A stretch of DNA of 31,107 nucleotides. Source: a virus (lineage: Duplodnaviria > Heunggongvirae > Uroviricota > Caudoviricetes). Below are positions 8,155 through 28,460 of the stretch, piece after piece. Position 1 is the stretch's first letter. Each line of letters opens with the position of its first letter. Location: IMG/VR virus record IMGVR_UViG_3300002835_000064; one strand, written 5' to 3'. Position numbers and translations under genes: made by a program. The notes under the pieces were generated by a model. The model was not told the origin of the DNA. It did no database searches and saw nothing but the letters and a program-made list of their open reading frames with translations.

Positions 8155-8155
8155 T

Positions 8156-8719
8156 ATGTCAGTTTTAATACAGTTTAGAAGAGATGCTGCAGCGAATTGG
8201 ACTGCAGCAAATCCAACATTAGCTCAAGGTGAAGTTGGTATTGAATTGGGTACGAATAATATGAAAATTGGGGATGGTATTGCAGCGTGGAATGTTCTAC
8301 CGTATGCATTTAATTTACCAGTATTTCCTACATTCCCTACATTCCCGGCTAGTGGGTTGGTCGGAATTTCGGAAACTCAAACCATAACTAATAAAACATT
8401 AACGACTATTGCATTATATGAAACGAAAGTAGCATTGCCAGCTAATAATATTAATTTAGCTACTGGTAATTATTTTACAAAAACTATATCGGGAGCGACA
8501 ACTTTTACGGTTAGTAACACCCCAGCTAGTGGTTTAGTTGGTGAATTTATTTTAGATTTAACTAATGGTGGTAGCTCTACTATTACTTGGTGGGGCGTTA
8601 AATGGGTAAGTGGAACTGCTCCAACATTAACAACGTCAGGTAGAGATGTTTTAGGCTTTTTTACTCATGATAATGGTTCTACTTGGACCGGTTTAGTAAT
8701 CGGTAAGGATATTAAATGA
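8156..8719 (+). CDS. Mtd_N-like domain protein / tail-fibre connector (187 aa)
   Basis: MSVLIQFRRDAAANWTAANPTLAQGEVGIELGTNNMKIGDGIAAWNVLPY matches the N-terminal domain type of Bordetella phage Mtd. Start moved to ATG 8156 (1 nt after the upstream stop) because the paralog at 20721 begins at the equivalent residue. Confidence 0.8.
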   Translation: MSVLIQFRRDAAANWTAANPTLAQGEVGIELGTNNMKIGDGIAAWNVLPYAFNLPVFPTFPTFPASGLVGISETQTITNKTLTTIALYETKVALPANNINLATGNYFTKTISGATTFTVSNTPASGLVGEFILDLTNGGSSTITWWGVKWVSGTAPTLTTSGRDVLGFFTHDNGSTWTGLVIGKDIK

Positions 8720-11926: not shown

Positions 11927-14900
11927 ATGGCAAAAAATCTTTCATCCATTATGCGTATAGATACTACGGAAATGCTACAATCGCCGTTAAAAGGGTATCA
12001 AGTTTATACTACTGGTGGTCAAATATCAAAAGTATTAAATCCAACACTATCTAATTATTTACCAGATGGTATTAAAATAACAGAATCTAATACTATAGCT
12101 GGTGCTGGATTGCCGCATTATTTATCTTGGACTGCTTTAGCTAATAACGGAACAACATTTGTTGCGATATCATCCAATTCTAATATTGCAGCTTATAGTA
12201 TTGATGGTATTAATTGGACTCAATCGAATTTACCGGATTATGGAGGTTGGGGTTCGATTTGTCATAATGGTTCGGTATTTTTTGCAATAATGACGAATAG
12301 AAATATAGGAGCCTATAGTTCTGATGGTATTACTTGGACTAAAGTTATTATACCTGGGATTGCAGAAACGGTTGGTTATACTAATATCGTTGCCGTTGGT
12401 AGTAAATTAGTAGTATCCCGAGCTGGGCAGTCAGCTTATAGTATTAACAATGGTGTAACTTGGACTCAAAATATTAATTTAGGTTTATTAACTGGTGGTT
12501 TCTTTGTAAGCGTAGCACATAATGGTTCGTATTATTTAGCAATTACTAATTCGGGTGGTGGTGCTGTGACTTCACCAGATGGTATTAATTGGACCCAACG
12601 CAGTTTACCATTTTCTAGTACTGGTAGTCATAAAGTAATCTCATTTAATTCTAAATTTTGTGTTTTTAATAGTGGAACTCCAACGACAGTAGCAGAATGG
12701 AATGTTGCAGTTTCGAATGATGGTATTAATTGGGCTGGTGTTGTATTACCGTATAAACTAACTGGTCGGTATTTTATAGCAGCAACAAAAAATGGAACTT
12801 TATGTGCGATAGCCAGCAATACTAATATTATCATGACATCATCGGATGGGCTTAATTGGACTGAACAAGCTGCATTACCCGTTTCCGCTAATTGGCAAGG
12901 AATTACTCAAAATACTTCGATTTTTTGTGCGGTTGCATATAATTCAAATATTGCAATTACTTCGACCGATGGTATTACTTGGACTCAAAGAACTTTGCCT
13001 GCTACTGCAAATTGGTGGGCATTAGCATGGAATGGATCTGTATTTTGTGCAGTTGCATATAATTCAAATATAGCAGCTACTTCGCCCGATGGTATTACTT
13101 GGACTCAAAGAACTTTGCCAGCAACCGCGAATTGGCGAGCATTAGCATGGAATGGATCTGTATTTTGTGCGATATCGACGACCTCAGTAATAACAGCAAC
13201 GTCAGCTGATGGTATTACTTGGACTCAAAGAACGATCCCGTATTATGCGCAATGGTATGATATAGTAGCTGCTGGTTCTACGTTTTGTACCATTGGTACT
13301 ACGTCTCCTATTAGTATATCAGCTATTAGCACAAATGGAATAAATTGGACTACTTCATCGAATGTAACTGAATTAAATCACGCGGTAAATCATTCGACGT
13401 TAGCCAGTAATTCTTCGATTTATGCTATTTTAGATTCTAATTCACCGACTGGTCAATATTCATCGGATGGATTAAATTGGACCGTAACTACATCATTACC
13501 GTCTGTTACTACAACTTATGGCTGGGTTGGTATGGCTTGGAATGGTTCAGTTTTTTGTGCGATTGCAACTGGTGGGACTGTAGCAGCTACTTCGCCTGAT
13601 GGTATTACTTGGACTCAGCGGACTTTGCCGGCGACGGCTAATTGGCAAGCTATTACATGGAATGGTTCGGTTTTTTGCGCGATTGCGTCGTCGACTACTA
13701 TAGCTGCAACATCACCTGATGGTATTACTTGGACTCAAAGAGCAATGCCAGTTTCTACTACGTGGTGGACTATCGTTTCTGGTGGGTCATTAATAGTTGC
13801 TATTTCCAACTCTACAAGTATAGCAGCGACTTCGACGGATAATGGTGCAACTTGGACTCAAAGAACATTATCATCATCTTCGAATTGGGCTTATATTGCA
13901 TGGAACGGAACTGTTTTTTGTGCGGTTGCTGCTGGGACTGCTATAGCTACGACATCACCAGATGGTATTACTTGGACTCAAAGAGCATTACCGGTATCGA
14001 CTTCCTGGCAATCCATAGCATGGAACGGAACTGTATTTTGTACAATTTCTGGTAATACTACGATAGCAGCTACATCACCAGATGGTATAAATTGGACTCA
14101 GCGCGTATTACCGATATCAGCCAATTGGGGAAGAATAATATCAAAAGGTAGCCATTTTTTATGCGTAAGTGATACTAATATCGCAGCTATTTCACAGGAT
14201 AATGGAATCACTTGGATGAGACGGGTTCCTGATATTGCGACTGCATTTAAGGGATCTAGCAATGGTGTTTTTGCGGCAGTCCCAATGTCGGGTAATTCAA
14301 CTTACATGTATAAAACTGATGGTTCATATTGGCAAAAATCATTATTATCCGGTAGTGTTAATTGGCCGGCGACTGCCTGGAATAATACAAAATTCGTAGC
14401 TACTAATACGAGTGGTATGTCGAGTAATGTTTCATATAATGGCTCTATTTGGTTTGCTGCCGGATTAAGAGGAACATCTATGGTCGATATAGTATACGGT
14501 GGATCATTATTTTGTGCAGTAAATAATTCTAGTACTTTTTATATTTCACCAGATGGTGTAAATTGGACGACAGTAGCTACTTACGCTGGGGCTACTGCTA
14601 TTACATGGAATGGTTCTATATTTTGTGCAATAGAAACAAATAACAGTCGAGTTCAAACATCAACTGATGGGTTAACGTGGATATTACGAGCCTTACCTAC
14701 TTCTACAGCATGGATTGATATCACAACGAATAATTCATTATTCGTTACTATTGCTTATGGTACTAATATCGCCGCTTCTTCAGTTGATGGTATTATTTGG
14801 ACTCAAAGAACTTTACCTACGACTACCAATTGGCAAGCAATAGCGTTCGGTGGATCAACTTTCTGCACTATTTCGAAAGATACGAATATAGCCGCCACAT

Positions 14901-16686: not shown

Positions 16687-16694
16687 AATAAATA
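16687..16694 (+). promoter_or_regulatory. Putative late promoter AATAAATA
   Basis: Intergenic, 20 nt upstream of ATG 16714 and before its AAAGGA ribosome-binding site. Confidence 0.45.
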
Positions 16695-16713: not shown

Positions 16714-17115
16714 ATGACTAAAACATTATCTGATATTGTAAAAACCAATGATAGTATCACTAAAGAACTTATTGGTTTAGATAAAGTCAATAATACAAGT
16801 GACGCGGAAAAACCCATTTCTACGGCAACTGCATTGGCATTAGGCTATAAGCAATCTACCTTAATAAGCGGAACTAATATTAAATCGATTGGTGGATTAA
16901 GTATTTTAGGTGGTGGTAATTTAATATTAAGTGGTGATGTTGTAACTACTGGGAGTGGATCTACTTTAACTTTAAATTTAGTACCTACCGGCGTAACGCC
17001 AGGTTCTTATAATACAGTAACAGTTGATGCTAAAGGTCGAGTCATCACGGCAATGAATACAAAGACATTAACCACTAATAAAGCTATGGTAATGTCATTA
17101 ATTTTTGGATATTAG
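16714..17115 (+). CDS. Mini tail-fibre protein built from the same modules as the giant fibre (133 aa)
   Basis: IGLDKVNNTSDAEKPIS...KQSTLISGTNIKSIGGLSILGGG aligns with the giant fibre at about 6475-6640, followed by TGVTPGSYNTVTVDAKGRV. It ends in a hydrophobic tail KAMVMSLIFGY. Confidence 0.75.
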   Translation: MTKTLSDIVKTNDSITKELIGLDKVNNTSDAEKPISTATALALGYKQSTLISGTNIKSIGGLSILGGGNLILSGDVVTTGSGSTLTLNLVPTGVTPGSYNTVTVDAKGRVITAMNTKTLTTNKAMVMSLIFGY

Positions 17116-17124
17116 GAGCAATAA

Positions 17125-17520
17125 ATGGCGGCGCCAAATATAATGAATGCAAATGCGGTTTACGGTAAAACTGCATATTTAACACCTAGTGTAAATACGG
17201 CAGTGATTTTATTACCGAATCAACCCGGCAGTAATCAGGTATATAAAATCAATAGTATTACTGCAGCAAATTCTGATGGTATTAATGCAATCAATACTAC
17301 GATTTCAATATACTCTAATGGTGTTATTGCTCAAAATTCAGCTCCGCAAGGTGGTACGGCATTTCCGCTAGTCAGTACAGTATCAGTTCCGGCTAATGCA
17401 TCATTGATTGTTGTTGATAAATCAAATGCATTTTATTTAGAAGAAAATACATCAATTGCAGTTACTTCGGGTGCTGCTAATAAAATTACTTATATTGTTA
17501 GTTATGAATCAATAACATAA
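17125..17520 (+). CDS. Hypothetical beta-rich virion protein, possible fibre-tip adaptor (131 aa)
   Basis: GGAG ribosome-binding site. Starts MAAPNIMNANAVYGKT and has an alternating beta-strand pattern. It sits between the mini-fibre and the adhesin. The adaptor role is inference. Confidence 0.65.
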   Translation: MAAPNIMNANAVYGKTAYLTPSVNTAVILLPNQPGSNQVYKINSITAANSDGINAINTTISIYSNGVIAQNSAPQGGTAFPLVSTVSVPANASLIVVDKSNAFYLEENTSIAVTSGAANKITYIVSYESIT

Positions 17521-17530
17521 AAGGTATTAT

Positions 17531-19864
17531 ATGGCGAGTAAATACGGCGGTCGAATATTATCTGCAATAACACCAACAACAGTAGGTGGTTCTTATACTA
17601 GTTCCGCTGGTGGGATGTGGGATTTAGTTGCTCAATCTCAAGCAAAAAAAGCTTTGATATGGCCTAAAGGGTCAGTACCCCCATCGAGACCAACTATAGG
17701 AACAGTAACTTTAGTAAATAGTACTGCGACGGTCCCGTTTACTGGATCTGCGGATCTTGGAGCCAATGTATTAACTCAATATAATTTAATATGTTCAGAT
17801 GGTCAAACCTTTTCTTCAAATACTTCGCCATTTACTGTTAATTTAACTCAAAATATCGTTTATACTTTCGCAGTTAATGGGTCTAATATCTCGGGCATGG
17901 GGGAAAGTAGTGTTAGTCCACCCATAATGAGATTAGGGACACCTACACCAAATACACCAGTATTTGGTAATAGTCAGGTTTCGGTTCATTTTACTCGAAA
18001 TGATTCTAATTTATCAGGATTACCAACTACTTATACGGTTACTTCATCTCCCGGTAATATGACCGCTACTGGGACATCATCACCAATTACCGTAACTGGT
18101 TTAACTAATGGTACAGCTTATACCTTTACTATAAAAGCAGCTAATGATTACGGTGAAAGTTTAGTTAGTGGTTCGAGTAGTAGTATGATTCCGGCTGCGG
18201 TACCAAGTGCTCCTACTATTGGGGCAGTAGTAGGTGGAAATAAATTCGCGACAGTTCCGTTTACATTTTCAACTAATAATAATGGTGATGTAATTAGTAG
18301 TTATACCGTAACTTCTAATCCGGGTGGTATAACTGCATCCGGAACTACTTCGCCAATTACAGTAACTGGACTAAACGTAGATTTAAATTATACATTCACT
18401 ATCGTAGCGAATAATAAAGCCGGGGCTAGTTTACCTAGTTCGGCTAGCAATAGTATTAGACCGGCATTAGTTCCAAGTCAACCAACTAGTGTTACTGCAG
18501 CTTATGGTTATTCAACTTCAACTAACGTCTCATTTAATGCGCCGGATAATGGTGGTTATCCAATCACACAATATACGGTAACGTCAAGTCCTGGAAATAT
18601 AACAGCTACTGGTGCATCATCCCCAATTACGGTAACCGGATTAACTAATAATACTGCATATACATTTACTGTAAAAGCTACTAATATTTTAGGAACTGGT
18701 TCGACTAGTTCTGCGAGCAATAGTATTAAACCCGGAACGCCTAGTGCACCATACCTATCATCAGTTGTTTATAGTAGTGGGACGACCGCAACCATTAATT
18801 TTTCAGTTCCTGGGTTAAATGGTGGGTCTGCTATTACCGGATATATAGTTACTAGATCGGATGGTGCTACAGTTTCTGGGACAGCATCACCGTTAGTTAT
18901 GGCAAATAATTTCGTTGATGGTACCTTATATACCTTTACTGTAGCTGCGATAAATGCCGTTGGTACTGGTGCTGCGAGTAATACTAGCTCGCAAGGAAGT
19001 CCAAAAATATCAGTAAATATCACATATAGTTCGGCTACTGCTAATTTAACTATTAATGACTCAATTATTACTAACGCGGCATACGGATTAGGATGGGATG
19101 GTGTCGTTCCGATATTATGTACGATTACGAATAATACTACCATCTACAGTACAGGCACCAGTTCTTATGCATTAACTATTGCTCCCAATATTCCAGCTTC
19201 TAGAAACCTTAAATTCATAAACAATGGTTATATCCTTGGTATGGGTGGTAATGGTGGTAATAGTGGCGGTCAAGCTAGTCCGGCTAATGGTTATATGGGC
19301 GGGCCAGCATTAAACGTTCAATCAAATGTAATATTTGTAAATAATAGTATTATAGCCGGGGGTGGTGGGGGTGGTGGTTCTGGTGGTTCATGGTACGCAG
19401 CATCTTGGGGTAGTAATGGGCATTCACCTTCTGGTGGGGGTGGTGGTGGTCGAGGTAATGATCAAGCTCTGTCGACTGGTGGTTATGGATCTCAATGGTA
19501 TAGTGATTCCCGTAGTTGGAGTACGGCTGGTGGTTCTGGTGGTTTTAGTTCGGGTGGTAATGGTGGTAACGGCGGCTTAGCGTATGGTCGTGAAAGTTGG
19601 CCAAATGGTTATACTGGTGGGGCTGGCTATAATACATATGGTAGTGGTGGAGGAGGTTCTGGCGGTTCTGGTGGTACATTCTCGGGCGCGATTCCTGGAG
19701 GGGGTGGTGGGGGTGGTGGTGCTTGGGGATCCGCTGGGGGTACTGGCGGTGCATCTGGTCATGGTGATGGTGGTGGTGGTGGGGGTGCTGGCGGTGTTGC
19801 TATTTCTGGGAATGTTTATATTACCTGGGCAGCAACCGGTTCTAGATACGGAGCTATCCAATAA
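17531..19864 (+). CDS. Adhesin A: N-terminal Trp motif + 5 fibronectin type III domains + gp38-like glycine-rich tip (777 aa)
   Basis: Five P..P...YTVTSSPG...SPITVTGLTN...YTFT..A.N..G Fn3-type units. The C-terminal NNGYILGMGGNGG...GGPAL...NNSIIAGGGGGGG...W..TG.RYG matches the T-even gp38 adhesin pattern. Confidence 0.8.
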   Translation: MASKYGGRILSAITPTTVGGSYTSSAGGMWDLVAQSQAKKALIWPKGSVPPSRPTIGTVTLVNSTATVPFTGSADLGANVLTQYNLICSDGQTFSSNTSPFTVNLTQNIVYTFAVNGSNISGMGESSVSPPIMRLGTPTPNTPVFGNSQVSVHFTRNDSNLSGLPTTYTVTSSPGNMTATGTSSPITVTGLTNGTAYTFTIKAANDYGESLVSGSSSSMIPAAVPSAPTIGAVVGGNKFATVPFTFSTNNNGDVISSYTVTSNPGGITASGTTSPITVTGLNVDLNYTFTIVANNKAGASLPSSASNSIRPALVPSQPTSVTAAYGYSTSTNVSFNAPDNGGYPITQYTVTSSPGNITATGASSPITVTGLTNNTAYTFTVKATNILGTGSTSSASNSIKPGTPSAPYLSSVVYSSGTTATINFSVPGLNGGSAITGYIVTRSDGATVSGTASPLVMANNFVDGTLYTFTVAAINAVGTGAASNTSSQGSPKISVNITYSSATANLTINDSIITNAAYGLGWDGVVPILCTITNNTTIYSTGTSSYALTIAPNIPASRNLKFINNGYILGMGGNGGNSGGQASPANGYMGGPALNVQSNVIFVNNSIIAGGGGGGGSGGSWYAASWGSNGHSPSGGGGGGRGNDQALSTGGYGSQWYSDSRSWSTAGGSGGFSSGGNGGNGGLAYGRESWPNGYTGGAGYNTYGSGGGGSGGSGGTFSGAIPGGGGGGGGAWGSAGGTGGASGHGDGGGGGGAGGVAISGNVYITWAATGSRYGAIQ

Positions 19865-20145
19865 TGATAAAATATTATACTATACAATTAGTCGAACAAC
19901 ATGTTTATATGAATAAACAATTATTTTACGTTTGGTATGATAATCATTACGTTTATGATTTTAAAAAAATATCAGAAACTAGAGTATTACACTTATTATC
20001 AAAAACCAAAAAACGATTACGATCTTATTTTAAAATTGAATGTGATGATATAATTTTACACGATTACTCAAAATCTAAATTAAAACGTAAACTTATTAAA
20101 CGATTACGTAAGATTAATAGCAATATAAAACTTAAAAAAATATAA
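19864..20145 (+). CDS. Hypothetical very basic protein (93 aa), very low GC
   Basis: TAATG overlap with the adhesin A stop. Lys/Arg-rich C-half. About 19% GC in the first 120 nt counted. An alternative start is possible at ATG 19909 (MNKQLF). Confidence 0.5.
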   Translation: MIKYYTIQLVEQHVYMNKQLFYVWYDNHYVYDFKKISETRVLHLLSKTKKRLRSYFKIECDDIILHDYSKSKLKRKLIKRLRKINSNIKLKKI

Positions 20146-20172
20146 TATTACTATATCGGATTGATAATTTAG

Positions 20173-20186
20173 TATAGATAAATACT
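20173..20186 (+). promoter_or_regulatory. Putative late promoter TATAGATAAATACT (core GATAAATA)
   Basis: An identical 14-mer occurs at 21731-21744. Both copies are intergenic and upstream of gene starts. Confidence 0.6.
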
Positions 20187-20223
20187 TGTTAACTAATTAA
20201 TTTTATTAATATTGAGTTTGAAT

Positions 20224-20721
20224 ATGACTACACTAATCAATAGAACGACCCCCAATTATTCAATACCAGTACCCAGTATTTCAAATCGCATAGTTGACGA
20301 TATTCCTCGATTAATTAATGCATTATATACTATTGATGGGTTATTATTTGCAAAACAAGATAAAAATTCTAGTACTAGTACATCAAATATATTAGATAGT
20401 AATGGTATATTACGCCTATCTAAATTACCGGCATTTCAAGGTGATGTTACTTCGACTGCCGGAACTTCGACTTTAATATTATCGAATACTGGCGTCGTAC
20501 CGGGAGCTTATAATAAAGTAACCGTCGATGCTAAAGGTCGCGTTACTGCCGGCTCAAATGAAGCAGTTCCATTAAAAACAATTAATGGTACCTCTTTATA
20601 TGGAGAAGGAAATATTTTAGTTTCTGGTGGGGGTGGTGGTAGTGCGGGCGGTAATCTCGACGGAGGTGGCCCATTTTCAAATTATGGTGGATTATCAGCA
20701 GTTGATGGAGGCAGTATTTAA
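20224..20721 (+). CDS. Mini tail-fibre protein (165 aa from ATG 20224; TTG 20212 also possible)
   Basis: N-terminal TTPNYSIPVPSISNRIVDDIPRLINALYTIDGLL is a fibre-type anchor motif. Then LPAFQGDV...NTGVVPGAYNKVTVDAKGRVTAG and LKTINGTSLYGEGNI, both shared with the giant fibre. Ends SAVDGGSI. Confidence 0.75.
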   Translation: MTTLINRTTPNYSIPVPSISNRIVDDIPRLINALYTIDGLLFAKQDKNSSTSTSNILDSNGILRLSKLPAFQGDVTSTAGTSTLILSNTGVVPGAYNKVTVDAKGRVTAGSNEAVPLKTINGTSLYGEGNILVSGGGGGSAGGNLDGGGPFSNYGGLSAVDGGSI

Positions 20722-21638
20722 TGGCAAGTATTATACAATTACGCAGAGGTACCGCACTAGAATGGGCTACGGCTAATCCAGTATTAGCTGAAGGTGAATT
20801 ATGTGTAGAGTTAGATACCAGTAAATGTAAAGTAGGAAATGGCGTTCAACATTGGAATGACTTATCTTATTCTATTGGTGCGAATGGTGCGAATGGCCAA
20901 AATGGCCAAAATGGGGCTGCGGGTAGAGATGGTGTTGATGGTGTTGATGGTATTGATGGTATGCCTGGTCCTATGGGTCCTATGGGCGGTACAGTAAGTG
21001 CATCCAGTAGACTAAATATAATCGGATCTATAAAACCATTAGTTAGTACTAGTCGTTGGTATCCAATGAAAACAGTATCTATCATTGGTTTATCAGCTAA
21101 TGTCGGTAAGCCGTCTACTACCAAAATTGAATTAGTTGTTCGTCGAAATGGTGCGTTATTGCAAACTATGGTTATTTTACCAAATCAATATAAATCACAA
21201 AACTATTCAAATTTAACTTATGCATTAGGTATTAATGATTATCTAACATTAGATATTGTTTCGGCTGATGGCGTTGCTTCGAATTTAAATTTAGTTATTG
21301 AATATTTTCCGCATGATAATATTACATTAACTGCATCTAGACTAAATTTTATCGGCCCAATTACTCCTATAATTGGTTCTTCTAGATGGTATCCGAGTCG
21401 AGTAATTACATTAAGACAAGTTCATTTAACCGTAGGTTCAAAATCGATTTCATCAATATTTGTTGATATTTTATTAAATGGTGTTGTTATCTTGAGTTTA
21501 AATATAGATGACAATCAATATCGATCAATCACATTAACAGATTTAAATACAGTAATTAACGAATCGGATTATATTACTGCGAATATCACTGCGGCTGTTG
21601 ATGGTAGGAATTTATCGGTAGTTTTAGAATATACTTAA
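20721..21638 (+). CDS. Mtd_N-like domain + collagen-like segment + duplicated C-terminal beta domain (305 aa)
   Basis: Starts MASIIQLRRGTALEWATANPVLAEGELCVELDTSKCKVGNGVQHWNDLSY, then 12 G-X-Y triplets, then two copies of about 100 aa of SRLNxIG.I.P....SRWYP...NG...NQY(K/R)S...DY(L/I)T..I...NL..V(I/L)EY. Confidence 0.8.
   Translation: MASIIQLRRGTALEWATANPVLAEGELCVELDTSKCKVGNGVQHWNDLSYSIGANGANGQNGQNGAAGRDGVDGVDGIDGMPGPMGPMGGTVSASSRLNIIGSIKPLVSTSRWYPMKTVSIIGLSANVGKPSTTKIELVVRRNGALLQTMVILPNQYKSQNYSNLTYALGINDYLTLDIVSADGVASNLNLVIEYFPHDNITLTASRLNFIGPITPIIGSSRWYPSRVITLRQVHLTVGSKSISSIFVDILLNGVVILSLNIDDNQYRSITLTDLNTVINESDYITANITAAVDGRNLSVVLEYT
20877..20984 (+). repeat. Collagen-like (Gly-X-Y)12 with paired exact 9-bp duplications
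   Basis: GAN GAN GQN GQN GAA GRD GVD GVD GID GMP GPM GPM. In DNA: (ggtgcgaat)2, (ggccaaaat)2, (ggtgttgat)2, (ggtcctatg)2. Confidence 0.9.
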
Positions 21639-21730
21639 AAGCTACTATATTATTAAATTAATTATTATCTAATGTAAATGTTTATAGCGATGATAATAAG
21701 CCTAATAAAATTTTATCGGGCAATATTGAT

Positions 21731-21744
21731 TATAGATAAATACT
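21731..21744 (+). promoter_or_regulatory. Putative late promoter TATAGATAAATACT (core GATAAATA)
   Basis: Second exact copy of the 14-mer, 54 nt upstream of ATG 21798, which has a GGAG ribosome-binding site. Confidence 0.6.
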
Positions 21745-21797
21745 AAACTCAATATACAGTAAAAAGTATAAAATAATTTAATCATTGGAGTTTATAA

Positions 21798-23840
21798 ATG
21801 GCTTTAATAATTTCCGCGCCCGGCGCAGATACAGTACAGATTACCACGACTAATTCCGGTGGTGTCTATAGTACATTTACGGAGCTAGCTCAAGCGGTTG
21901 CTGATGCAGTTACTGGTGTAGCTCCAGTAGCTACTACTGGATGGACAGTATATGATACGTTTACCAGTGGCATTATCTACACTCAAGTTTTTCGCGCCTT
22001 AAATAAAGACGGAACTACTTATAAAAATGCTATTTTCCGTTGGAATACTATCAGTTGCGAACTTAATATAAGTACGTGCGAACTTTGGGATATTATAAAT
22101 CATATCCCACAAAATGAAGCATGGACTTACTATGATAGTTCACCAATTCCTTATCGTCTAGATGCAACTGATTTATTATTATTCATCAATCCTCGTTGGT
22201 TAGCTGCTCATTCTTATATGGCGAATGAACCAACTTGTTGGGCCGGCGTTTTTGAAATGGAACGCGAAGATGTTGCTGATACTGGTGGATTTCCATGTTG
22301 GGGGTGGATTTCGTCTAGTTTATGGATGTTAGGTGCTACATCATTAGGTGCAGTTCCGATCCAAGGTGGTGGTAATACGTTAATATCAATTCCTCGCACA
22401 AGAGCTGGCGCAACTGGTTTTGCAGCATCTAGAACTATTGCTTGCGATTATGGGGTTGCACAATACCCAAATGTTTTATCTACCACCGCCGCAGCATTTA
22501 TCTATTATATCGGAAACCAAGTTAATAAATACGTTTCTAATAGCTGGGATACTTCTAAACGTTTAGTGATGCCATTAAAACCATCATTTGAATTTACTAG
22601 TTCTTATGTTTCGAATTATGGTCAAATATACGGACTTAAAGTAATTAGTCCGGCCGGCAATAATATGAATAAAATTCAAGTAAATGTGAATAGTGATGGT
22701 AATTACTCACCGTCGGGAACATTAACTGATCATTGGATTTTAAATAATCATTATAAACCTTGCCAAAATCAAACATCGGCTTGGTTTACTAATACTAATT
22801 TAGTAATGAGTGCATACCCAGTTGGTTTTAGACCTCAATATTTTACATCTACTGGTTCTAGTTATTATATAACCGCAGGTGATCAAGGTAATAATCTTAC
22901 GAAAGTAAATATTTTAACTGGCGTGTATGTTAATATAAAAACAGATAGACAATATTATGATGTTAAATATGATGGTGAACGTTATGTTTATGCTTCATCA
23001 TCTGCTGGATTAACTCGTATTGATACTAGAGATGATACGACTACTGATTTATCAGTCGGGGCTGGTGGTATTTACGCATTCGATATTAATGCTACTCATT
23101 TAGTTTGCGCTCAGTATACATCTTCAGCTACACCTATTATTTGGAGAGTTTTAAGAACTACTTTTGCGGTTGATTCATCTAATGGTAGTATTACTTTAGC
23201 GACATTTAACGAATCGGTTCGTATCTCATGTATTACTATGGATATGGCGGGTAATGCGCATTTAGTCGCTCCTGTTGCTACTGCCGCGAACTTTAAAGTT
23301 TGTAAAATTCTCGCCGCTACGCCAGCATCACCAATATATCAATTAAATAATTTTTCAGTATCGACTAATGCTGGTATTATGATGATTAATGAATATACTA
23401 TGTTGGTAATTACTCATCTTACTAGTGGGGCGACGTATATGTATACCTATCACCCATTAACTCTAGCGTTAGTTAGTACTAACTTAACAGTTGGAACTAA
23501 CCCTGCCATGACGGTGAATTTTTATAAACCGTCGATGATTAAGATTTCGGGTACTATTATGTCTATGGGTAGATCGAATACTACGACGGCATATGGATAT
23601 ATGACGAATTTAGGAACCAATTCGGCGACAACTACTTGGACTCCTATTACTCCAATTCAAACTGGTGATATGTATAGTACCACTGGTAATATTAGTGGCG
23701 TTTCTTCTATGGCGGCTATGTATTGGGATGGGGCGCGTATGGTTGGTATATATGATTCTGGTTTACGTGTATTTTCCGGTATTAATGGTAATAACGTCCA
23801 ATCTTCAGTAACTGTTGGTCAGACCTTATTGCCGATATGA
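21798..23840 (+). CDS. Hypothetical virion-associated protein, C-terminal half beta-propeller-like (680 aa)
   Basis: Long ORF with GGAG ribosome-binding site. The C-half shows blade-like periodicity (YFTSTGSSYYIT, YDVKYDGERYVYASSSAGLTRID, YAFDINATHLV, YWDGARMV). Function not recognised. Confidence 0.65.
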   Translation: MALIISAPGADTVQITTTNSGGVYSTFTELAQAVADAVTGVAPVATTGWTVYDTFTSGIIYTQVFRALNKDGTTYKNAIFRWNTISCELNISTCELWDIINHIPQNEAWTYYDSSPIPYRLDATDLLLFINPRWLAAHSYMANEPTCWAGVFEMEREDVADTGGFPCWGWISSSLWMLGATSLGAVPIQGGGNTLISIPRTRAGATGFAASRTIACDYGVAQYPNVLSTTAAAFIYYIGNQVNKYVSNSWDTSKRLVMPLKPSFEFTSSYVSNYGQIYGLKVISPAGNNMNKIQVNVNSDGNYSPSGTLTDHWILNNHYKPCQNQTSAWFTNTNLVMSAYPVGFRPQYFTSTGSSYYITAGDQGNNLTKVNILTGVYVNIKTDRQYYDVKYDGERYVYASSSAGLTRIDTRDDTTTDLSVGAGGIYAFDINATHLVCAQYTSSATPIIWRVLRTTFAVDSSNGSITLATFNESVRISCITMDMAGNAHLVAPVATAANFKVCKILAATPASPIYQLNNFSVSTNAGIMMINEYTMLVITHLTSGATYMYTYHPLTLALVSTNLTVGTNPAMTVNFYKPSMIKISGTIMSMGRSNTTTAYGYMTNLGTNSATTTWTPITPIQTGDMYSTTGNISGVSSMAAMYWDGARMVGIYDSGLRVFSGINGNNVQSSVTVGQTLLPI

Positions 23841-24262
23841 TAGCTAATATGAACACTAGAGTATCGCTGGTAATTAGTGGGTTTGTTTTACCGAGAATTG
23901 GTAAAACGGATCAAACAATTTCCAGATTAACTAAAATCACTAGCGTTCTATTACCGAAATTTTCTAGCACCAAGAGTGTCGGTAAACCGACACTCTTGGT
24001 GACGACCGGTTTTAAAGTACCTATGGTCGGTAAATCAAGAAAAGTAGAGTCTAGTTTAAGTGGTATCATGTTATGGAATCCGAAAGGTACTAACGGTATT
24101 AAATCTATGCCGCTGGTCGGGGTTCCTCGAGCAACAATATCCGAAAAAACTATAACTACTGGCTTTTTATTACCAAAAACGTCTGGTATTCAAGTAATTA
24201 AATGGCTTGATGCAGCTAGACCAAACGTACAAATAGAACAAATAATTCAATTTTGGAGTTAA
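23837..24262 (+). CDS. Hypothetical basic protein with (S/T)GFxxP pseudo-repeats (141 aa)
   Basis: ATGA overlap with the upstream gene. Repeats: SGFVLPRIGK, SVLLPKFSS, TGFKVPMVGK, TGFLLPKTSG. Confidence 0.6.
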   Translation: MIANMNTRVSLVISGFVLPRIGKTDQTISRLTKITSVLLPKFSSTKSVGKPTLLVTTGFKVPMVGKSRKVESSLSGIMLWNPKGTNGIKSMPLVGVPRATISEKTITTGFLLPKTSGIQVIKWLDAARPNVQIEQIIQFWS

Positions 24263-24265
24263 ATA

Positions 24266-24460
24266 ATGAGATATATTGATGCAATTGAATTGCTCCCGAG
24301 TGCAAGTTACATCTATGCTGATGTTACGTCGACTGAGTTAGCTAAGATAAAAATAGCGCACTATACGTCAGAACTCGAAGGTAAAACTATCGTAGGAACA
24401 AGCGAACCTATTGATAAATTATCTAGTAAATTATTGATCCCTGGATCAATAACATTCTAA
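24266..24460 (+). CDS. Hypothetical protein (64 aa)
   Basis: Starts 3 nt after the upstream stop with GGAG just upstream, and is followed by a terminator. Confidence 0.55.
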   Translation: MRYIDAIELLPSASYIYADVTSTELAKIKIAHYTSELEGKTIVGTSEPIDKLSSKLLIPGSITF

Positions 24461-24475
24461 TAGATTTAAATAGAG

Positions 24476-24506
24476 ATAACCCGGGTTTTAACTCGGGTTA
24501 TTTTTT
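24476..24506 (+). terminator. Intrinsic terminator
   Basis: ATAACCCGGG-TTTTAA-CTCGGGTTAT stem (one G-U pair) followed by a T-tract, 15 nt after the 24460 stop. Confidence 0.8.
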
Positions 24507-24567
24507 GCCATATATAAAATAACATTTAATAAGTGATATTTCATATATGTAAATTATATAGGTTTAT

Positions 24568-26898
24568 ATGAGTAATCGATACTTCGGTGGGATAATATCC
24601 GCTACTAAAATAACGACATCTGGGACTACATATACTGGCTCAGCTAGTGGTATATGGAATTTAGTTCAGCAAGCTCGACAAAAACAGTTAAATGCTTGGC
24701 CTAAAGGTAAAGGTATATCAGAACCATTGGATCCGCCCGTAAGTTCAGTAACGGCGGGAAATGAGGTGGCTACTATTGCATTTACTGCACCTCAGGATAA
24801 TGGTGGAGATGCAGTAATTGGTTATATCGCTACTGCGAATCCGGGTAATATAACGTCGACTGCTGCTACATCTCCAATTACTATATACGGATTAACTAAC
24901 GATCAAATCTATTATATAAGTGTTGCTGCTACTAATTCTTTCGGTAGTACTTTAAAATCGACTCCATATCCAATTACACCAACTAATACATTAGGAACTA
25001 CGATTCCGAGTAAACCAACTAATGTATCAGCGAGTGTTGGTGGTGGTTATGCACTAATAACATTTACTACTCCTTCTAGTATTGGTAGTTCTGCTATTAG
25101 TAGCTATCGGGTAATATCGTCACCAGATGGATTAGTTAATACTGGTACTACCACTTCAATACCAATATACGGTTTAGTTCCTGGAAAATCATATACATTT
25201 AGAGTTATTGCTATCAATACCCAAGGTTCTAGTGCGCCTAGTTTACCAAGTAATAGTGTAATTCCAACTTTACCGGGTAAGCCATCAAGTCCGACTATAA
25301 CATCTGCGGTTTTTGGTAATACTCAAGCTACGATTTACTTCAATCCGTCAGCCGATTTAGGTGGATCTGCTTGCACATACACAATTACTTCATCACCTAG
25401 TGGAAAAACTGCAAGTGGGTTATCATCACCTATTATAGTTACTGGATTAATAAATGGGGTGACCTATACTTTTACTATGACTGCTGCTAATTCTATTGGT
25501 ATAAGTGATAAAAGTAATGTTAGTAGCTTTGTTGTTCCAGCAACTATACCTAGTACACCGGTTATTACGTCTGTGACTGCGGGCGATTCTCAGATTAACG
25601 TATTCTTTAGAATCCCGATAAATGGCGGTAGTATTATTTCTAATTATCGGGTAACTAGTTCCGGTGGTCAAATAGCTAATGGTACGACCTCACCAATTAC
25701 AGTAACCGGATTAACCAATAATACATCATATACGTTTACTATGCTTGCGACTAATGCGATTGGTAATAGTCTTGTTAGTAATACTAGTTTAAGTATCAAA
25801 CCGGTCGGTGCTCCGCCTGTTCCGCCAATAGCTTATGCAACATCAATTAATAGTTCAACTACCCAATCATTTGTTTTAAATTGGGATACAAATTCTGGTT
25901 ATACATATACGGTTTGGAGTACTGGCGGTCAAGTTTCTGGCGTAACCACATCCGGATCTACTATATTATATCAATACGGAACAACGATATTAGAGCCGGA
26001 TAGTTCATATACCTTTTATGTAAGAGCAACTAATGCTTACGGTTCAGTTTATTCTAATTCAGTAAGTGTTACTATTCCAAAAGCGGCTGTCGCATTAAAT
26101 ATTACTGGGACGTCGGTTCCATTAGTAATAAATAGTACTTGGGCTGCAAATCAAGGTTGGTCATTAGCAAATCAAGCTAAACCAGCAGAAGTCACCATTA
26201 ATATAACGGGTACTTGTACATCACAGTATTATAATACTTCATCAACCTATAACACAAATTCAAATTATTCCACGTATACATTAATGATTCAGTTAACTGG
26301 ATTACATGCCAGTTCGACTATTACGATTAATGTAAATAGTGAGATCCGCGGTATTTACGCTGATTATGCATATTATTATGATTCTGGTTGGTGGAGAAGA
26401 AGTGGTTATGATGGTGGTCCGGCATTATATATTGCATGCAATAAAAATGTTACTTTATATAACTATAGTACTATTGGTGGAGCTGGGGGTGGTGGTGGTG
26501 TTGGTGGGGCTGGATTAAATGCACCTGAGCCTGGTGATGGTGGAGCTGGTGGTAGAGGCGGGAATGCTTTAATAATTCAACCTGGCTATACGACTACTAT
26601 TTACAATTACGGTAATTTAGTTGGTGGTGGCGGCGGAGGGGGTGGTGGTTCTGGTGGTTCTGGAGCTGGTATTCCTCGAGGTGGCACAACTTCAAATAAT
26701 TATAGTGGGGGTGCTGGTGGTCAAGGTTCTGGTGGTGCTGCCGGTGGTTCTGGTGGGGGCTGGGGTGGTTATGGAACTCAGGGTTCTCAGGGATATTATG
26801 CTACCGGTGGTGCGGGTGGGGCTCCTGGGTCATATATAGTAAATGGTAGTTACGCATCCTGGGCTGTTACCGGTAATAGATATGGTAATGCCGGATAA
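24568..26898 (+). CDS. Adhesin B: paralog of 17531 (Trp motif + 5 Fn3 + gp38-like glycine-rich tip, 776 aa)
   Basis: Same architecture as adhesin A. N-terminus SASGIWNLVQQARQKQLNAWPKG, GGPALYI...NYSTIGGAGGGGG, and C-terminus SWAVTGNRYG. Confidence 0.8.
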   Translation: MSNRYFGGIISATKITTSGTTYTGSASGIWNLVQQARQKQLNAWPKGKGISEPLDPPVSSVTAGNEVATIAFTAPQDNGGDAVIGYIATANPGNITSTAATSPITIYGLTNDQIYYISVAATNSFGSTLKSTPYPITPTNTLGTTIPSKPTNVSASVGGGYALITFTTPSSIGSSAISSYRVISSPDGLVNTGTTTSIPIYGLVPGKSYTFRVIAINTQGSSAPSLPSNSVIPTLPGKPSSPTITSAVFGNTQATIYFNPSADLGGSACTYTITSSPSGKTASGLSSPIIVTGLINGVTYTFTMTAANSIGISDKSNVSSFVVPATIPSTPVITSVTAGDSQINVFFRIPINGGSIISNYRVTSSGGQIANGTTSPITVTGLTNNTSYTFTMLATNAIGNSLVSNTSLSIKPVGAPPVPPIAYATSINSSTTQSFVLNWDTNSGYTYTVWSTGGQVSGVTTSGSTILYQYGTTILEPDSSYTFYVRATNAYGSVYSNSVSVTIPKAAVALNITGTSVPLVINSTWAANQGWSLANQAKPAEVTINITGTCTSQYYNTSSTYNTNSNYSTYTLMIQLTGLHASSTITINVNSEIRGIYADYAYYYDSGWWRRSGYDGGPALYIACNKNVTLYNYSTIGGAGGGGGVGGAGLNAPEPGDGGAGGRGGNALIIQPGYTTTIYNYGNLVGGGGGGGGGSGGSGAGIPRGGTTSNNYSGGAGGQGSGGAAGGSGGGWGGYGTQGSQGYYATGGAGGAPGSYIVNGSYASWAVTGNRYGNAG

Positions 26899-26932: not shown

Positions 26933-26963
26933 AAAGGTGAGTGATTATTTCATTCACTTTTTT
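26932..26963 (+). terminator. Hairpin with T-tract (terminator of adhesin B, or 5' leader stem of the next transcript)
   Basis: AAAAGGTGAGTGA-TTATT-TCATTCACTTTTT forms a 13-bp stem with two G-U pairs and ends in T6. Confidence 0.6.
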
Positions 26964-26990
26964 AATACCCCTAACATAAGGATAAAATTT

Positions 26991-27953
26991 ATGGCATGGG
27001 AAACAACCGATTCTACCCCGAAGGTAGAAGTGATAGAGGATACGAAAATGGTAGATACAGTTATAGCACAGCCATCGCAAGATGGTATGTTCGGTGGCGG
27101 CACACTTGGTGCTGTTTTATTAGGTTCTTTACTTCCCCGTTTAGTTGGTAATGGTACCGACGCTGCAGCTTTAGCTGCTTCACAAAACAATCAAGGTACG
27201 ACTCAAATCTTACAAGCATTGAATCAATCAATGTCTTCTAATGGTTTAGTTAACACAATTCAAGATATTAACAGAATTGGTCATGATGTTGCTACAAGTG
27301 CTGGTGATACTCAAGCTGCTATTGCTGCTGGTAATTTAAATACTACTGTCGCTATGTTGCAAGGTCAAAATACCTTATCTAGTACTGTTGCTGCAGCTGC
27401 AGCTGACGTTACGGCTAATGTAAATAATTCACGCAATGGAGTTATTGACGCAGTTAATCAATCGATTAATATGCTTGATTCTGATTTGCATGGTTTAGCT
27501 AATAATGTAACTGCTGGTTTTGGTGCGATCACGGATAATATGAATCGCAATAATTTAGCTAATTTAGCAGCGTCTCATGCGAATGAAGTAGCTACATTAA
27601 CTTCTGCTTATGCATTACAAACAGCTATTACCAATGACGGTTCAAAAACTCGTGATTTGATTAATGCATATAATACAGCTGATTTAAATCGTCAGATCGT
27701 TGTTGCTGAAAATCGTGTTGCTGAGTTATTGGGTGATAATCGTCATGCTAGAAGTACAAGTGATATTATTATCAACAATAACAGTAATGCGACGGCTATT
27801 TCTAATGCAATGCAGTTACAAGCTCAACAACAACAATTTACTACATTAGCTGGCGGTTTATCTACTGCTTTAGCTCAATTGTCAAATTTAACGAATATTA
27901 CACTGACAAACACCAATACTGGGACAAATACTCAGCGCAGTGTTCAAGTGTAA
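26991..27953 (+). CDS. Hypothetical protein: Gly-rich hydrophobic segment + long Ala/Asn-rich helical region (320 aa; 301 aa from ATG 27048)
   Basis: The GTG 26937 start lies inside the hairpin and is unlikely. ATG 26991 (AAGGA) and ATG 27048 (GAGGA) each have a ribosome-binding site 7 nt upstream. GMFGGGTLGAVLLGSLLPRLVG is followed by a heptad-like region. Confidence 0.8.
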   Translation: MAWETTDSTPKVEVIEDTKMVDTVIAQPSQDGMFGGGTLGAVLLGSLLPRLVGNGTDAAALAASQNNQGTTQILQALNQSMSSNGLVNTIQDINRIGHDVATSAGDTQAAIAAGNLNTTVAMLQGQNTLSSTVAAAAADVTANVNNSRNGVIDAVNQSINMLDSDLHGLANNVTAGFGAITDNMNRNNLANLAASHANEVATLTSAYALQTAITNDGSKTRDLINAYNTADLNRQIVVAENRVAELLGDNRHARSTSDIIINNNSNATAISNAMQLQAQQQQFTTLAGGLSTALAQLSNLTNITLTNTNTGTNTQRSVQV

Positions 27954-28067: not shown

Positions 28068-28460
28068 ATGTATACGAGTGCCGTAACCCAGTTAGATGAT
28101 TTGCAAACCAAAATTAATGTTTTAAAACAGCAGCAATTAGGCGGTTATAATTTTCAGCCTAACAACCCTCTTATTAATAATATTACTCCTGACCAAATTC
28201 AACTTATGGTTCAGCAAGAAATTGCAAAATATATACCTCAGGCGAAATTACCTGAGCCGGAAATTCCTTTAACTGAACATCAGAAGATGATAAAGGAAAT
28301 CAATGATTTAGCGGCTTCTGTTCTATCAGCAGAAGACCTAAATTGGTTAAGTGATTCTACTGTTTTAAAAGGGATCCCACTTTTCCTCAAATCAGCTAGA
28401 GGTAAAGAAGCTTTTTCTTTATTACTATCTGAATATCGCTCTTATGTCGAGGGCAAATAA
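28068..28460 (+). CDS. Hypothetical helical Gln/Pro-rich protein (130 aa)
   Basis: Purine-rich upstream sequence GAGAGA. Short N-terminal coiled-coil-like segment QLDDLQTKINVLKQQQ, then a Pro-rich linker and a helical C-terminus. Confidence 0.7.
   Translation: MYTSAVTQLDDLQTKINVLKQQQLGGYNFQPNNPLINNITPDQIQLMVQQEIAKYIPQAKLPEPEIPLTEHQKMIKEINDLAASVLSAEDLNWLSDSTVLKGIPLFLKSARGKEAFSLLLSEYRSYVEGK

Follow-up and report, generated by a model that had tools for sequence, protein, structure and literature searches.

Two gp38-like adhesins on fibronectin stalks in a lake jumbo phage share a portable, putative docking peptide and probably a jelly-roll adaptor

The window (the whole 31,107-nt stretch analysed here) belongs to a 107-kb contig of a lake jumbo phage, ~33% complete, and carries two adhesin genes, A and B, the first preceded by a mini-fibre gene and a small gene at 17125 that encodes a putative adaptor:

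16688–16694, + strand: ATAAATA, a late promoter box of T4 type, in front of the mini-fibre/adaptor/adhesin A unit; found before most structural units of the contig
16714–17115, + strand: mini-fibre, 133 residues, with fibre repeats (PHROG tail-fibre matches) and a hydrophobic C-terminal segment (17074–17112)
17125–17520, + strand: putative adaptor ('socket'), 131 residues, a single jelly roll by AlphaFold and fold search; residues 87–96 (17383–17412) line the peptide site predicted by the complex model
17531–17674, + strand: putative docking peptide ('plug') of adhesin A, residues 1–48, recognized by its invariant-residue pattern and identical in a near-identical strain
17675–19003, + strand: stalk of adhesin A, five Fn3 domains (Pfam fn3, own-unit HMM)
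19004–19864, + strand: tip of adhesin A, predicted gp38 fold (beta-helix plus polyglycine sandwich, variable loops) by fold comparison
24472–24506, + strand: intrinsic terminator-like hairpin 5' of B (−18.7 kcal/mol, T-run)
24511–24521, + strand: late-box-like element, non-canonical by an additional A, 54 nt 5' of B, kept in relatives
24568–24717, + strand: putative docking peptide of adhesin B, residues 1–50, from ortholog conservation; modelled on the adaptor trimer
24718–26079, + strand: stalk of adhesin B, five Fn3 domains (Pfam fn3, own-unit HMM)
26080–26898, + strand: tip of adhesin B, gp38-like by a weak Pfam GP38 match and alignment with the A tip, with a repeated connector motif

The anatomy described in an earlier note on this DNA is real. 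Both reading frames are present (A, 17531–19864, 777 residues; B, 24568–26898, 776 residues) and encode paralogs (36% identity over 726 columns, E 3e-55), each with exactly five Fn3 domains (A 49–491, B 51–504, by an HMM made from their own Fn3 units; Pfam fn3 E 6e-31 and 8e-31). Their N-terminal peptides are 49% identical, whereas Fn3 domains one and five reach ~30%, and both proteins contain the C-terminal motif W..TG.RYG. All four aromatic-rich tip segments quoted in that note were found, aromatics forming 16–19% of non-glycine tip residues versus 7–8% in the stalk. The shared plan of peptide, five Fn3 domains and tip holds for both genes, but the two differ inside the tip, where a connector motif (GG-x-AL...YNY...poly-Gly) occurs twice, in B only. 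The genes at 16714, 17125 and 17531 are contiguous (~10-nt gaps) behind one late box, a predicted transcription unit, and the same ATAAATA box precedes most structural units of the contig. The hairpin and T-run bear out the claim that B lies behind a terminator, though the terminator scan missed this hairpin; four relatives also have a hairpin at the corresponding place. On the + strand 5' of B we found no canonical late box and no sigma-70 match; the late-box-like element, present at 55 nt in relatives L083, L084 and L245, is a candidate variant promoter of B.

Sequence searches of the PDB and of phage records with the A tip gave no match, so a fold search was needed. The predicted A tip (pLDDT low in the Gly-rich part) matches gp38, the match being limited to gp38 residues 44–249 (6F45_D; VIA Z 16.1, rmsd 3.9, 200 aligned; next unrelated row Z 7.6), and PP01 gp38 (Foldseek E 1.6e-6). 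The B tip can be aligned to that of A and matches the Pfam GP38 HMM at E 1.7e-4, below the curated cut-off. Predicted fold for A, and this weak match and alignment for B, thus uphold the proposal of gp38-like tips on an Fn3 stalk, and by analogy with gp38 the tip loops of both adhesins may bind host surface molecules. Used as a query, the tip alignment found no IMG/VR loci. Comparing A with a near-identical strain, residues 1–392 match at 391/392 positions, the Gly-rich part at 67% and its non-Gly residues at 71/129. This comparison supports variable tip loops on a constant peptide and stalk. A recombinational or invertible A–B switch was rejected: we found no long shared repeat and no flanking inverted repeat, and A–B joints in four metagenomes were few, with a short side of only 21 letters, and lay in poly-Gly DNA, the contigs showing presence only. 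Host-range change without recombination, as the earlier note had it, may accordingly hold within an infection, whereas over evolution tips have been exchanged; for regulated switching, B's separate transcription unit is the sole argument.

The N-terminal peptide belongs to a portable, unnamed family of ~45 residues on carriers of 236–1708 aa, with G7, G28 and W44 invariant and A26, W30 and P45 nearly so (48–74 family members). Its cargos are of at least eight types (Gly_rich_2, LamG, beta-propeller, DUF7483, Lcl_C, Fn3, RCC1 and GP38). Among testable loci, found by the peptide alone and with >5 kb of upstream sequence, 76/77 have an adaptor homolog upstream of the plug (type I 36/37, type II 40/40). 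Seen from the adaptor, the first gene 3' is a full type I or first-half plug in 145/166 cases, against a background of 8/981 for any plug class, and DSL-LC04, which is a complete genome, contains a single adaptor gene alongside two plug genes. Judged from sequence, hundreds of freshwater phages apparently use the same plug for many kinds of binding domain, two at once and not either/or. An identity with the three-Trp attachment domain of gp38 is not supported: with E values allowed up to 10 the plug profile still found no gp38 chain, nor did it match any Pfam family consistently, and its conserved Trp residues number two, not three, although a missing match does not prove that the two differ. 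Neither plug nor adaptor has a Pfam or PDB sequence match, nor has the adaptor one in PHROG. Protein atlas searches linked the adaptor to unnamed viral clusters only and gave nothing usable for the peptide. In a separate search of 1.8 billion proteins, the single 50-residue peptide was a weak query with two true matches. A literature search, with most subscription papers outside its scope, returned no description of either.

The adaptor is widespread: clustering its homologs at 90% identity leaves at least 1620 clusters, and IMG/VR contains at least 564 loci. It also occurs in the cultured phages Pelagibacter HTVC033P, Synechococcus S-SKS1 and Bellamy. Its AlphaFold model (pLDDT 89.9) has as best fold matches the KHP40 cement trimer (7DOU, Z 9.4), nucleoplasmin (Z 9.1) and the HFTV1 turret (8QPG, Z 8.4); these jelly-roll decorations, with the STIV turret (4IND), span Z 8.4–9.4, rmsd 3.5–5.2 and 12–14% identity and tie with nucleoplasmin; theirs is a common fold that does not indicate function. 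Of 152 genes immediately 5' of an adaptor homolog, 141 encode a hydrophobic C-terminal segment, and in HTVC033P the gene at this place is the annotated tail fibre gp66. We infer that the mini-fibre carries the adaptor through its hydrophobic C-terminal segment.

Modelling three copies of 17125 with the B peptide gave a score of 0.69, against 0.00 for the best of three controls; the benchmark mark was reached by 58/80 solved complexes and 2/110 mismatched pairs, a guide that is only rough for this job. Runs share at least 89% of contacts, with partner pLDDT of at least 63. The closest contacts join plug W30, W44 and P45 to adaptor A55, S87, P89 and A92, each at least 90% conserved; as a set, interface residues are not significantly more conserved than the remaining adaptor (p 0.09). 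A single modelled peptide contacts residues 87–95 of all three subunits, which would fit one plug per socket, the 3:1 ratio being a preset choice. A sequence search for a similar complex found none. Near relatives of a genuine partner reach the mark in this scoring too. Linkage and, for the B peptide, the complex model agree with the earlier idea that both N-termini dock on one partner, here the product of gene 17125, and we consider it likely that the peptides of both A and B dock there.

The mechanism we propose is as follows. The hydrophobic end of the mini-fibre would carry a 17125 oligomer, probably a trimer, as gene linkage and fold indicate; the N-peptides would plug into its face of residues 53–57 and 87–96 (modelled for B, by homology for A), each plug holding a monomeric adhesin whose Fn3 stalk may vary freely in length and whose gp38-fold tip (the fold being predicted for A) has loops that would bind molecules of the host surface. 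The plug would serve phages as a module for attaching cargo of any kind. Two plugs in non-equivalent positions would normally occupy the socket, and A and B would most likely share an appendage, so that both specificities are on show together and no switch is needed. We put the whole explanation, co-display included, at about an even chance. Tentatively, and at somewhat less than even, the system could be a very common virion hub of freshwater phages, so far undescribed, in which a jelly-roll oligomer at a fibre end bears two or three different monomeric adhesins, their number changed by plug splitting or a cargo-less plug, with A and B its two cargos here.

Family-wide data bear on how the positions are filled. 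Opposite plug types (I and II) occur in 54/60 two-cargo loci, and plug type tracks gene position (leave-one-out, 72/80 and 91/91). Of 14 equal-length pairs besides A/B, nine have cargos that resemble each other more closely than their plugs do, which also speaks for two positions. Cargo-less plug genes of 42, 47 and 52 aa adjoin a cargo gene; second-half-only genes follow a first-half-only gene in 45/56 loci and a full type I plug in 0/72. Adaptors with one adjoining plug gene number 8/97 loci, to which the second adaptors of L245 and L255 are added. Opposite types, retained cargo-less plugs and split plugs favour co-display, though A (+18) and B (+13) both score as type I-like (type I median +39). 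In the peptide tree, a quick and weak version of 56 columns, A and B plugs group together and B plugs form their own lineage (support 93), which points to a lineage-specific duplication and not an old type I/II pair. The earlier interpretation as a whole is partly supported; its interchangeable tips in one socket are doubtful, and two non-equivalent positions filled together are favoured. Given docking on 17125, we hold co-display of A and B to be moderately probable.

The strongest rival is the earlier note's model minus its fixed reach, and we think it unlikely: each adaptor trimer would have one socket for which A and B compete, the expression of two transcription units setting the virion mixture. 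The contact of one modelled peptide with all three subunits, like the 3:1 gp37–gp38 tip (PMC6851490), would suit it, as would the type I-like scores, the single 17125-type gene in the partial contig, which has only two copies of the peptide, and the contrast between B, with its own terminator and conserved non-canonical box, and A after a canonical late box. That contrast is not general, since in three relatives no canonical box lies within 70 nt of the mini-fibre either. A plug without cargo could do no more than obstruct a lone socket, but such plugs persist; the two plug types remain separate by position even where the cargos resemble each other, and the B plug lineage is itself conserved (70–85% identity among orthologs).

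Co-display on 17125 would also fail if B used a second adaptor from the missing two thirds of the genome, placing the adhesins on different appendages. B lies in its own unit 7 kb from the adaptor, and relatives L245 and L246 have two adaptors each; there, however, the second adaptor comes with a fibre and cargo of its own, with three plugs per two adaptors, and the B peptide models well on 17125, though close cousins of the true partner pass as well. This arrangement seems improbable. To a similarly low degree we credit 17125 as a folding chaperone or capsid cement that binds the peptide transiently or puts adhesins on the head: a trimeric capsid cement ranks first among the fold matches, level with nucleoplasmin, the cluster lies after the gene for the major capsid protein, and beta-sandwich fibre chaperones exist (Pam3 gp25, PMC9608196), but the hydrophobic end of the upstream gene and the annotated fibre in HTVC033P speak for a fibre, and plug-only genes make little sense for a chaperone. 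That B is a decaying, unexpressed duplicate, as its lack of a canonical late box after the terminator might hint, is very improbable given full-length frames in three genomes, the same start in two further genomes, the conserved upstream element and a docking peptide far more conserved than the stalk (next Fn3 34–40% identical to window B).

Comparison with described systems suggests docking-peptide adhesin display akin to that of KP32 and DEV, with a differing acceptor and plug. T-even gp38 (Salmonella phage S16, PDB 6F45; PP01, PDB 9V85; Pfam PF05268) has the tip fold predicted for A, and shares with A and B loops that vary between strains (hypervariable segments between glycine-rich motifs are seen in A) and a monomeric adhesin on an oligomeric partner via conserved Trp, here modelled. 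A short linker, with no stalk, connects its attachment domain to the beta-helix (PMC6851490), and attachment is direct, through three helices, whereas A and B have five Fn3 domains and a different peptide. gp38 caps the trimeric beta-helix of gp37, from the adjoining gene; here the product of the neighbouring gene, which is also the partner in the model, consists of one jelly roll, there are two paralogs, and the same plug is also found on many non-gp38 cargos. In the KP32, K11 and KP34 Klebsiella phages, a conserved N-terminal docking peptide, portable and dispensable for folding, displays a second RBP alongside the first, its acceptor being a branching domain inside RBP1 (PMC13352976); the plug is likewise short and portable, whereas in the model a jelly roll encoded by a separate gene acts as acceptor. 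Compared by description, KP32-type cargos are depolymerase spikes and those here lectin-like or gp38-like, and the plug differs in having two position-specific types, in being splittable over two genes and in sometimes lacking cargo. The depolymerase spikes of KP32-type systems are trimeric. Pseudomonas phage DEV has the same gene order of fibre, small adaptor and RBP (gp56–gp55–gp54), an operon proposed to be a mobile module; there a gpJ-like trimer bears a single adaptor monomer and a single RBP, and neither a portable peptide in common nor a further cargo is described (PMC12892993). Against 50,697 phage records, 17125 had no Schitoviridae match. As the docking-peptide principle is already known, the surprise is limited. 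If docking holds, the 45-residue tag would mark displayed host-binding proteins among hypothetical genes of uncultured aquatic phages and show how such phages carry several specificities, and the gp38 tip would emerge as an independent module that can sit on a different anchor; adaptor and synthetic peptide would be easy to test in vitro.

The nearly equal lengths of A and B had been taken to reflect a fixed reach. The equality is real, but it is not conserved: syntenic relatives pair 1001/1708, 772/1457 and 771/1462 aa, and relatives' adhesins range over 4–8 Fn3 domains, with LamG inserts, and 684–1708 aa, which refutes the idea by the criterion that the note itself had set. Searching for loci with the B region as query recovered only itself. 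Cargo lengths agree within 2% in 13/55 two-cargo loci, A/B included, mostly with the same cargo plan in both genes.

The genes considered here are:

16714–17115, mini-fibre gene (16714)
17125–17520, 131-aa jelly-roll adaptor gene (17125), the proposed socket
17531–19864, adhesin gene A
24568–26898, adhesin gene B

A and B are a genuine pair, as the earlier note described: each is formed by an N-terminal putative docking peptide (the plug, ~45 residues), five Fn3 domains and a tip, and the products (777 and 776 aa) are 36% identical (49% in the N-peptides, ~30% in the first and last Fn3 domains). Its interpretation was only partly right, holding for a gp38-like fold of the A tip and failing on a fixed reach. 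The predicted structure of the A tip has a pLDDT of 69 overall, >90 in the β-helix and <50 across much of the glycine-rich part. It matches S16 gp38 residues 44–249 (Z 16.1) and PP01 gp38 (Z 15.6), and the following row scores 7.6; the gp38 attachment domain falls outside the match. For B, there is a weak Pfam GP38 match at the sequence level, and its tip contains the connector motif in repeated form. The tips would work like gp38, but A and B are not strict members of that family, having a stalk and another partner. Comparison of A with a near-identical strain (residues 1–392 the same except one; sandwich non-glycine residues only 55% identical) indicates variation in the tip against a constant peptide and stalk. 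At 18704–18754, one low-depth contig from metagenome run X9 departs from A where the strain variant P0128 starts to diverge, and more than one A allele may be in circulation.

Gene order is conserved in four relatives, whose A/B lengths are 1001/1708, 772/1457, 771/1462 and 750 aa/B cut off, and Fn3 count ranges from 4 to 8, with LamG inserts after or within the first Fn3; the proposal that conserved length reflects a fixed reach is contradicted by these values, an outcome that the earlier note itself had named as refuting it. A mostly keeps five Fn3 domains and the variation sits in B. The B gene of relative L082 joins a B-type peptide to an A-type last Fn3 (59–74% to A genes, 30% to the window's B), which suggests shuffling between paralogs. 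In the wider family, lengths lie within 2% in 13 of 55 cargo pairs, mostly because both genes share a cargo plan.

We modelled three copies of 17125 with residues 1–50 of B, obtaining a score of 0.69, whereas none of the three controls exceeded 0.00. Of 80 solved complexes 58 reach the score mark, as do 2 of 110 mismatched pairs, counts only roughly valid for this complex. Contact agreement between runs was at least 89% and peptide pLDDT at least 63. The closest modelled contacts place W30, W44 and P45 of the peptide against A55, S87, P89 and A92 of the adaptor, all of which reach at least 90% conservation within the peptide or the adaptor family; taken as a whole, the interface shows no significant excess of conservation over the remaining adaptor (p 0.09). 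A trimer was assumed from the cement-like fold and from three paralogs in seven of eight multi-adaptor loci of related phages. B lies 7 kb from 17125 yet its peptide models on it, supporting a common partner for A and B. The peptide is predicted to bind the adaptor, the adaptor would attach to the fibre, and the tips would bind receptors.

Structure prediction gives 17125 as a single jelly roll, and Pfam, PHROG and PDB sequence searches found no sequence family for it. Homologues occur in at least 1620 clusters and at least 564 IMG/VR loci, and in HTVC033P, S-SKS1, Bellamy, S-CBWM1 and DSL-LC04, a complete metagenome-assembled genome with one adaptor and two plug genes. The gene 5′ of the adaptor has a short hydrophobic C-terminal segment in 141 of 152 loci. 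Of 166 genes lying 3′ of it, 145 open with a type I plug, either complete or as its first half (background: any plug class matched by 8 of 981 upstream genes). Conversely, of 77 loci retrieved by the peptide alone and with sufficient sequence upstream, 76 carry an adaptor there, a figure somewhat biased by seed alignments taken from adaptor loci. Full-peptide proteins span 236–1462 aa in adaptor loci (1708 aa in L082), and plug cargos carry glycine-rich, LamG, β-propeller, DUF7483, Lcl_C, Fn3, RCC1 or gp38 domains. Family size, plug–adaptor linkage and varied cargos make the peptide part of a large module. In the literature searched, neither the adaptor nor the plug is described, and the same holds for the split plug and the plug-only genes; the available text of a jumbo-phage review (PMC7824862) lists LamG lectins on fibres and does not mention such an anchor. 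The anchoring resembles that of KP32, which also uses a conserved peptide (PMC13352976), and DEV has a similar operon in gp56–gp55–gp54 (PMC12892993), homology being established for neither.

Several loci depart from this layout. In L009 (10001–11133), L019 and L060–L062, three divergent adaptor paralogs stand in tandem ahead of split-plug genes; the 87–96 motif is altered in one paralog, and a heterotrimer is possible. S-CBWM1 gp15 (L089, 8001–8396) is a single case of a lone adaptor homologue with no adjoining fibre or cargo and the 87–94 motif gone. The relatives L245 (15733–18482) and L255 (306–4951) have a second fibre–adaptor–cargo unit with a single plug gene, and in L007 (1738), L068 (2999), L148 and L231 a ~190-aa gene resembling a homing endonuclease separates the adaptor from the first cargo.

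Plug sequence tracks the position of the gene, and one plug of each type (I and II) is present in 54 of 60 two-cargo loci. Among 14 other pairs of equal length, 9 have cargos that resemble each other more closely than their plugs do, and plug-only genes (42 and 47 aa; 52 aa less clear) adjoin a cargo gene where the space is too small for a lost cargo. The plug is often split: with classes set by regular expressions on related phages, a second-half gene comes after a first-half gene in 45 of 56 loci, but none of 72 loci has one after a full type I gene. With adaptors clustered at 85% identity, 12 clusters have a split pair, none of the 25 in which the type I gene is complete has one, and 11 have a first half with no detected second half. 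Plug type by position, cargo-alike pairs, plug-only genes and the split plug all point away from competition of A and B for one socket, which we consider rather improbable even though one modelled peptide contacts all three adaptor subunits, a result that speaks for competition. Co-display of A and B has about an even chance. Both plugs are type I-like, and judging by sequence A and B probably duplicated within this lineage, the B plug later becoming its own conserved line; the argument for co-display in the window is therefore indirect.

The window covers 75654–106760 of a 107-kb contig (~33% complete) that encodes a T4-type major capsid protein most closely related to those of jumbo phages XacN1, Xoo-sp13 and RsoM2USA (54–56%); the DNA occurs in lake and freshwater metagenomes. 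After the capsid gene comes a long series of fibre and lectin genes, and the window is its final part. A canonical late box precedes the unit of A. Upstream of B lie a terminator and a late-box-like element carrying an additional A nucleotide, which three relatives keep. B reads as a unit separate from that of A, with no switch implied.

Further features accompany these genes. The window starts within a 5730-aa fibre gene (genome 66615–83807; window part 175–8154) made of many copies of a repeat also present in both mini-fibres. The 1507-aa repeat protein at 11927 and the 16714 mini-fibre share an N-terminal start, M-x-K-x-L-S-x-I, also found in L002, L057, L082, L083, L244 and L245, which may be another docking tag at the next level up. 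Twice a fibre gene with a terminal DGG motif precedes an Mtd_N gene (175–8154 then ~8096–8719; 20212–20721 then 20721–21638), an arrangement also in L245 and probably another connector pair. Directly after A, 19864–20145 encodes a basic 93-aa product without glycine, with a homologue in L082 and L245 and none called in L083. Behind late boxes sit genes for a 338-aa Ala/Asn/Gln-rich protein (26937–27953) and a 130-aa protein (28068–28460), neither with a PHROG match; relatives have different genes 3′ of B. The window differs from the genome record at 30 positions, including 11970–11975, 23893–23899 and 19 sites in 1–822, with none in A, B or 17125; at 23893–23899, run X9 carries the letters of the genome record rather than those of the window.
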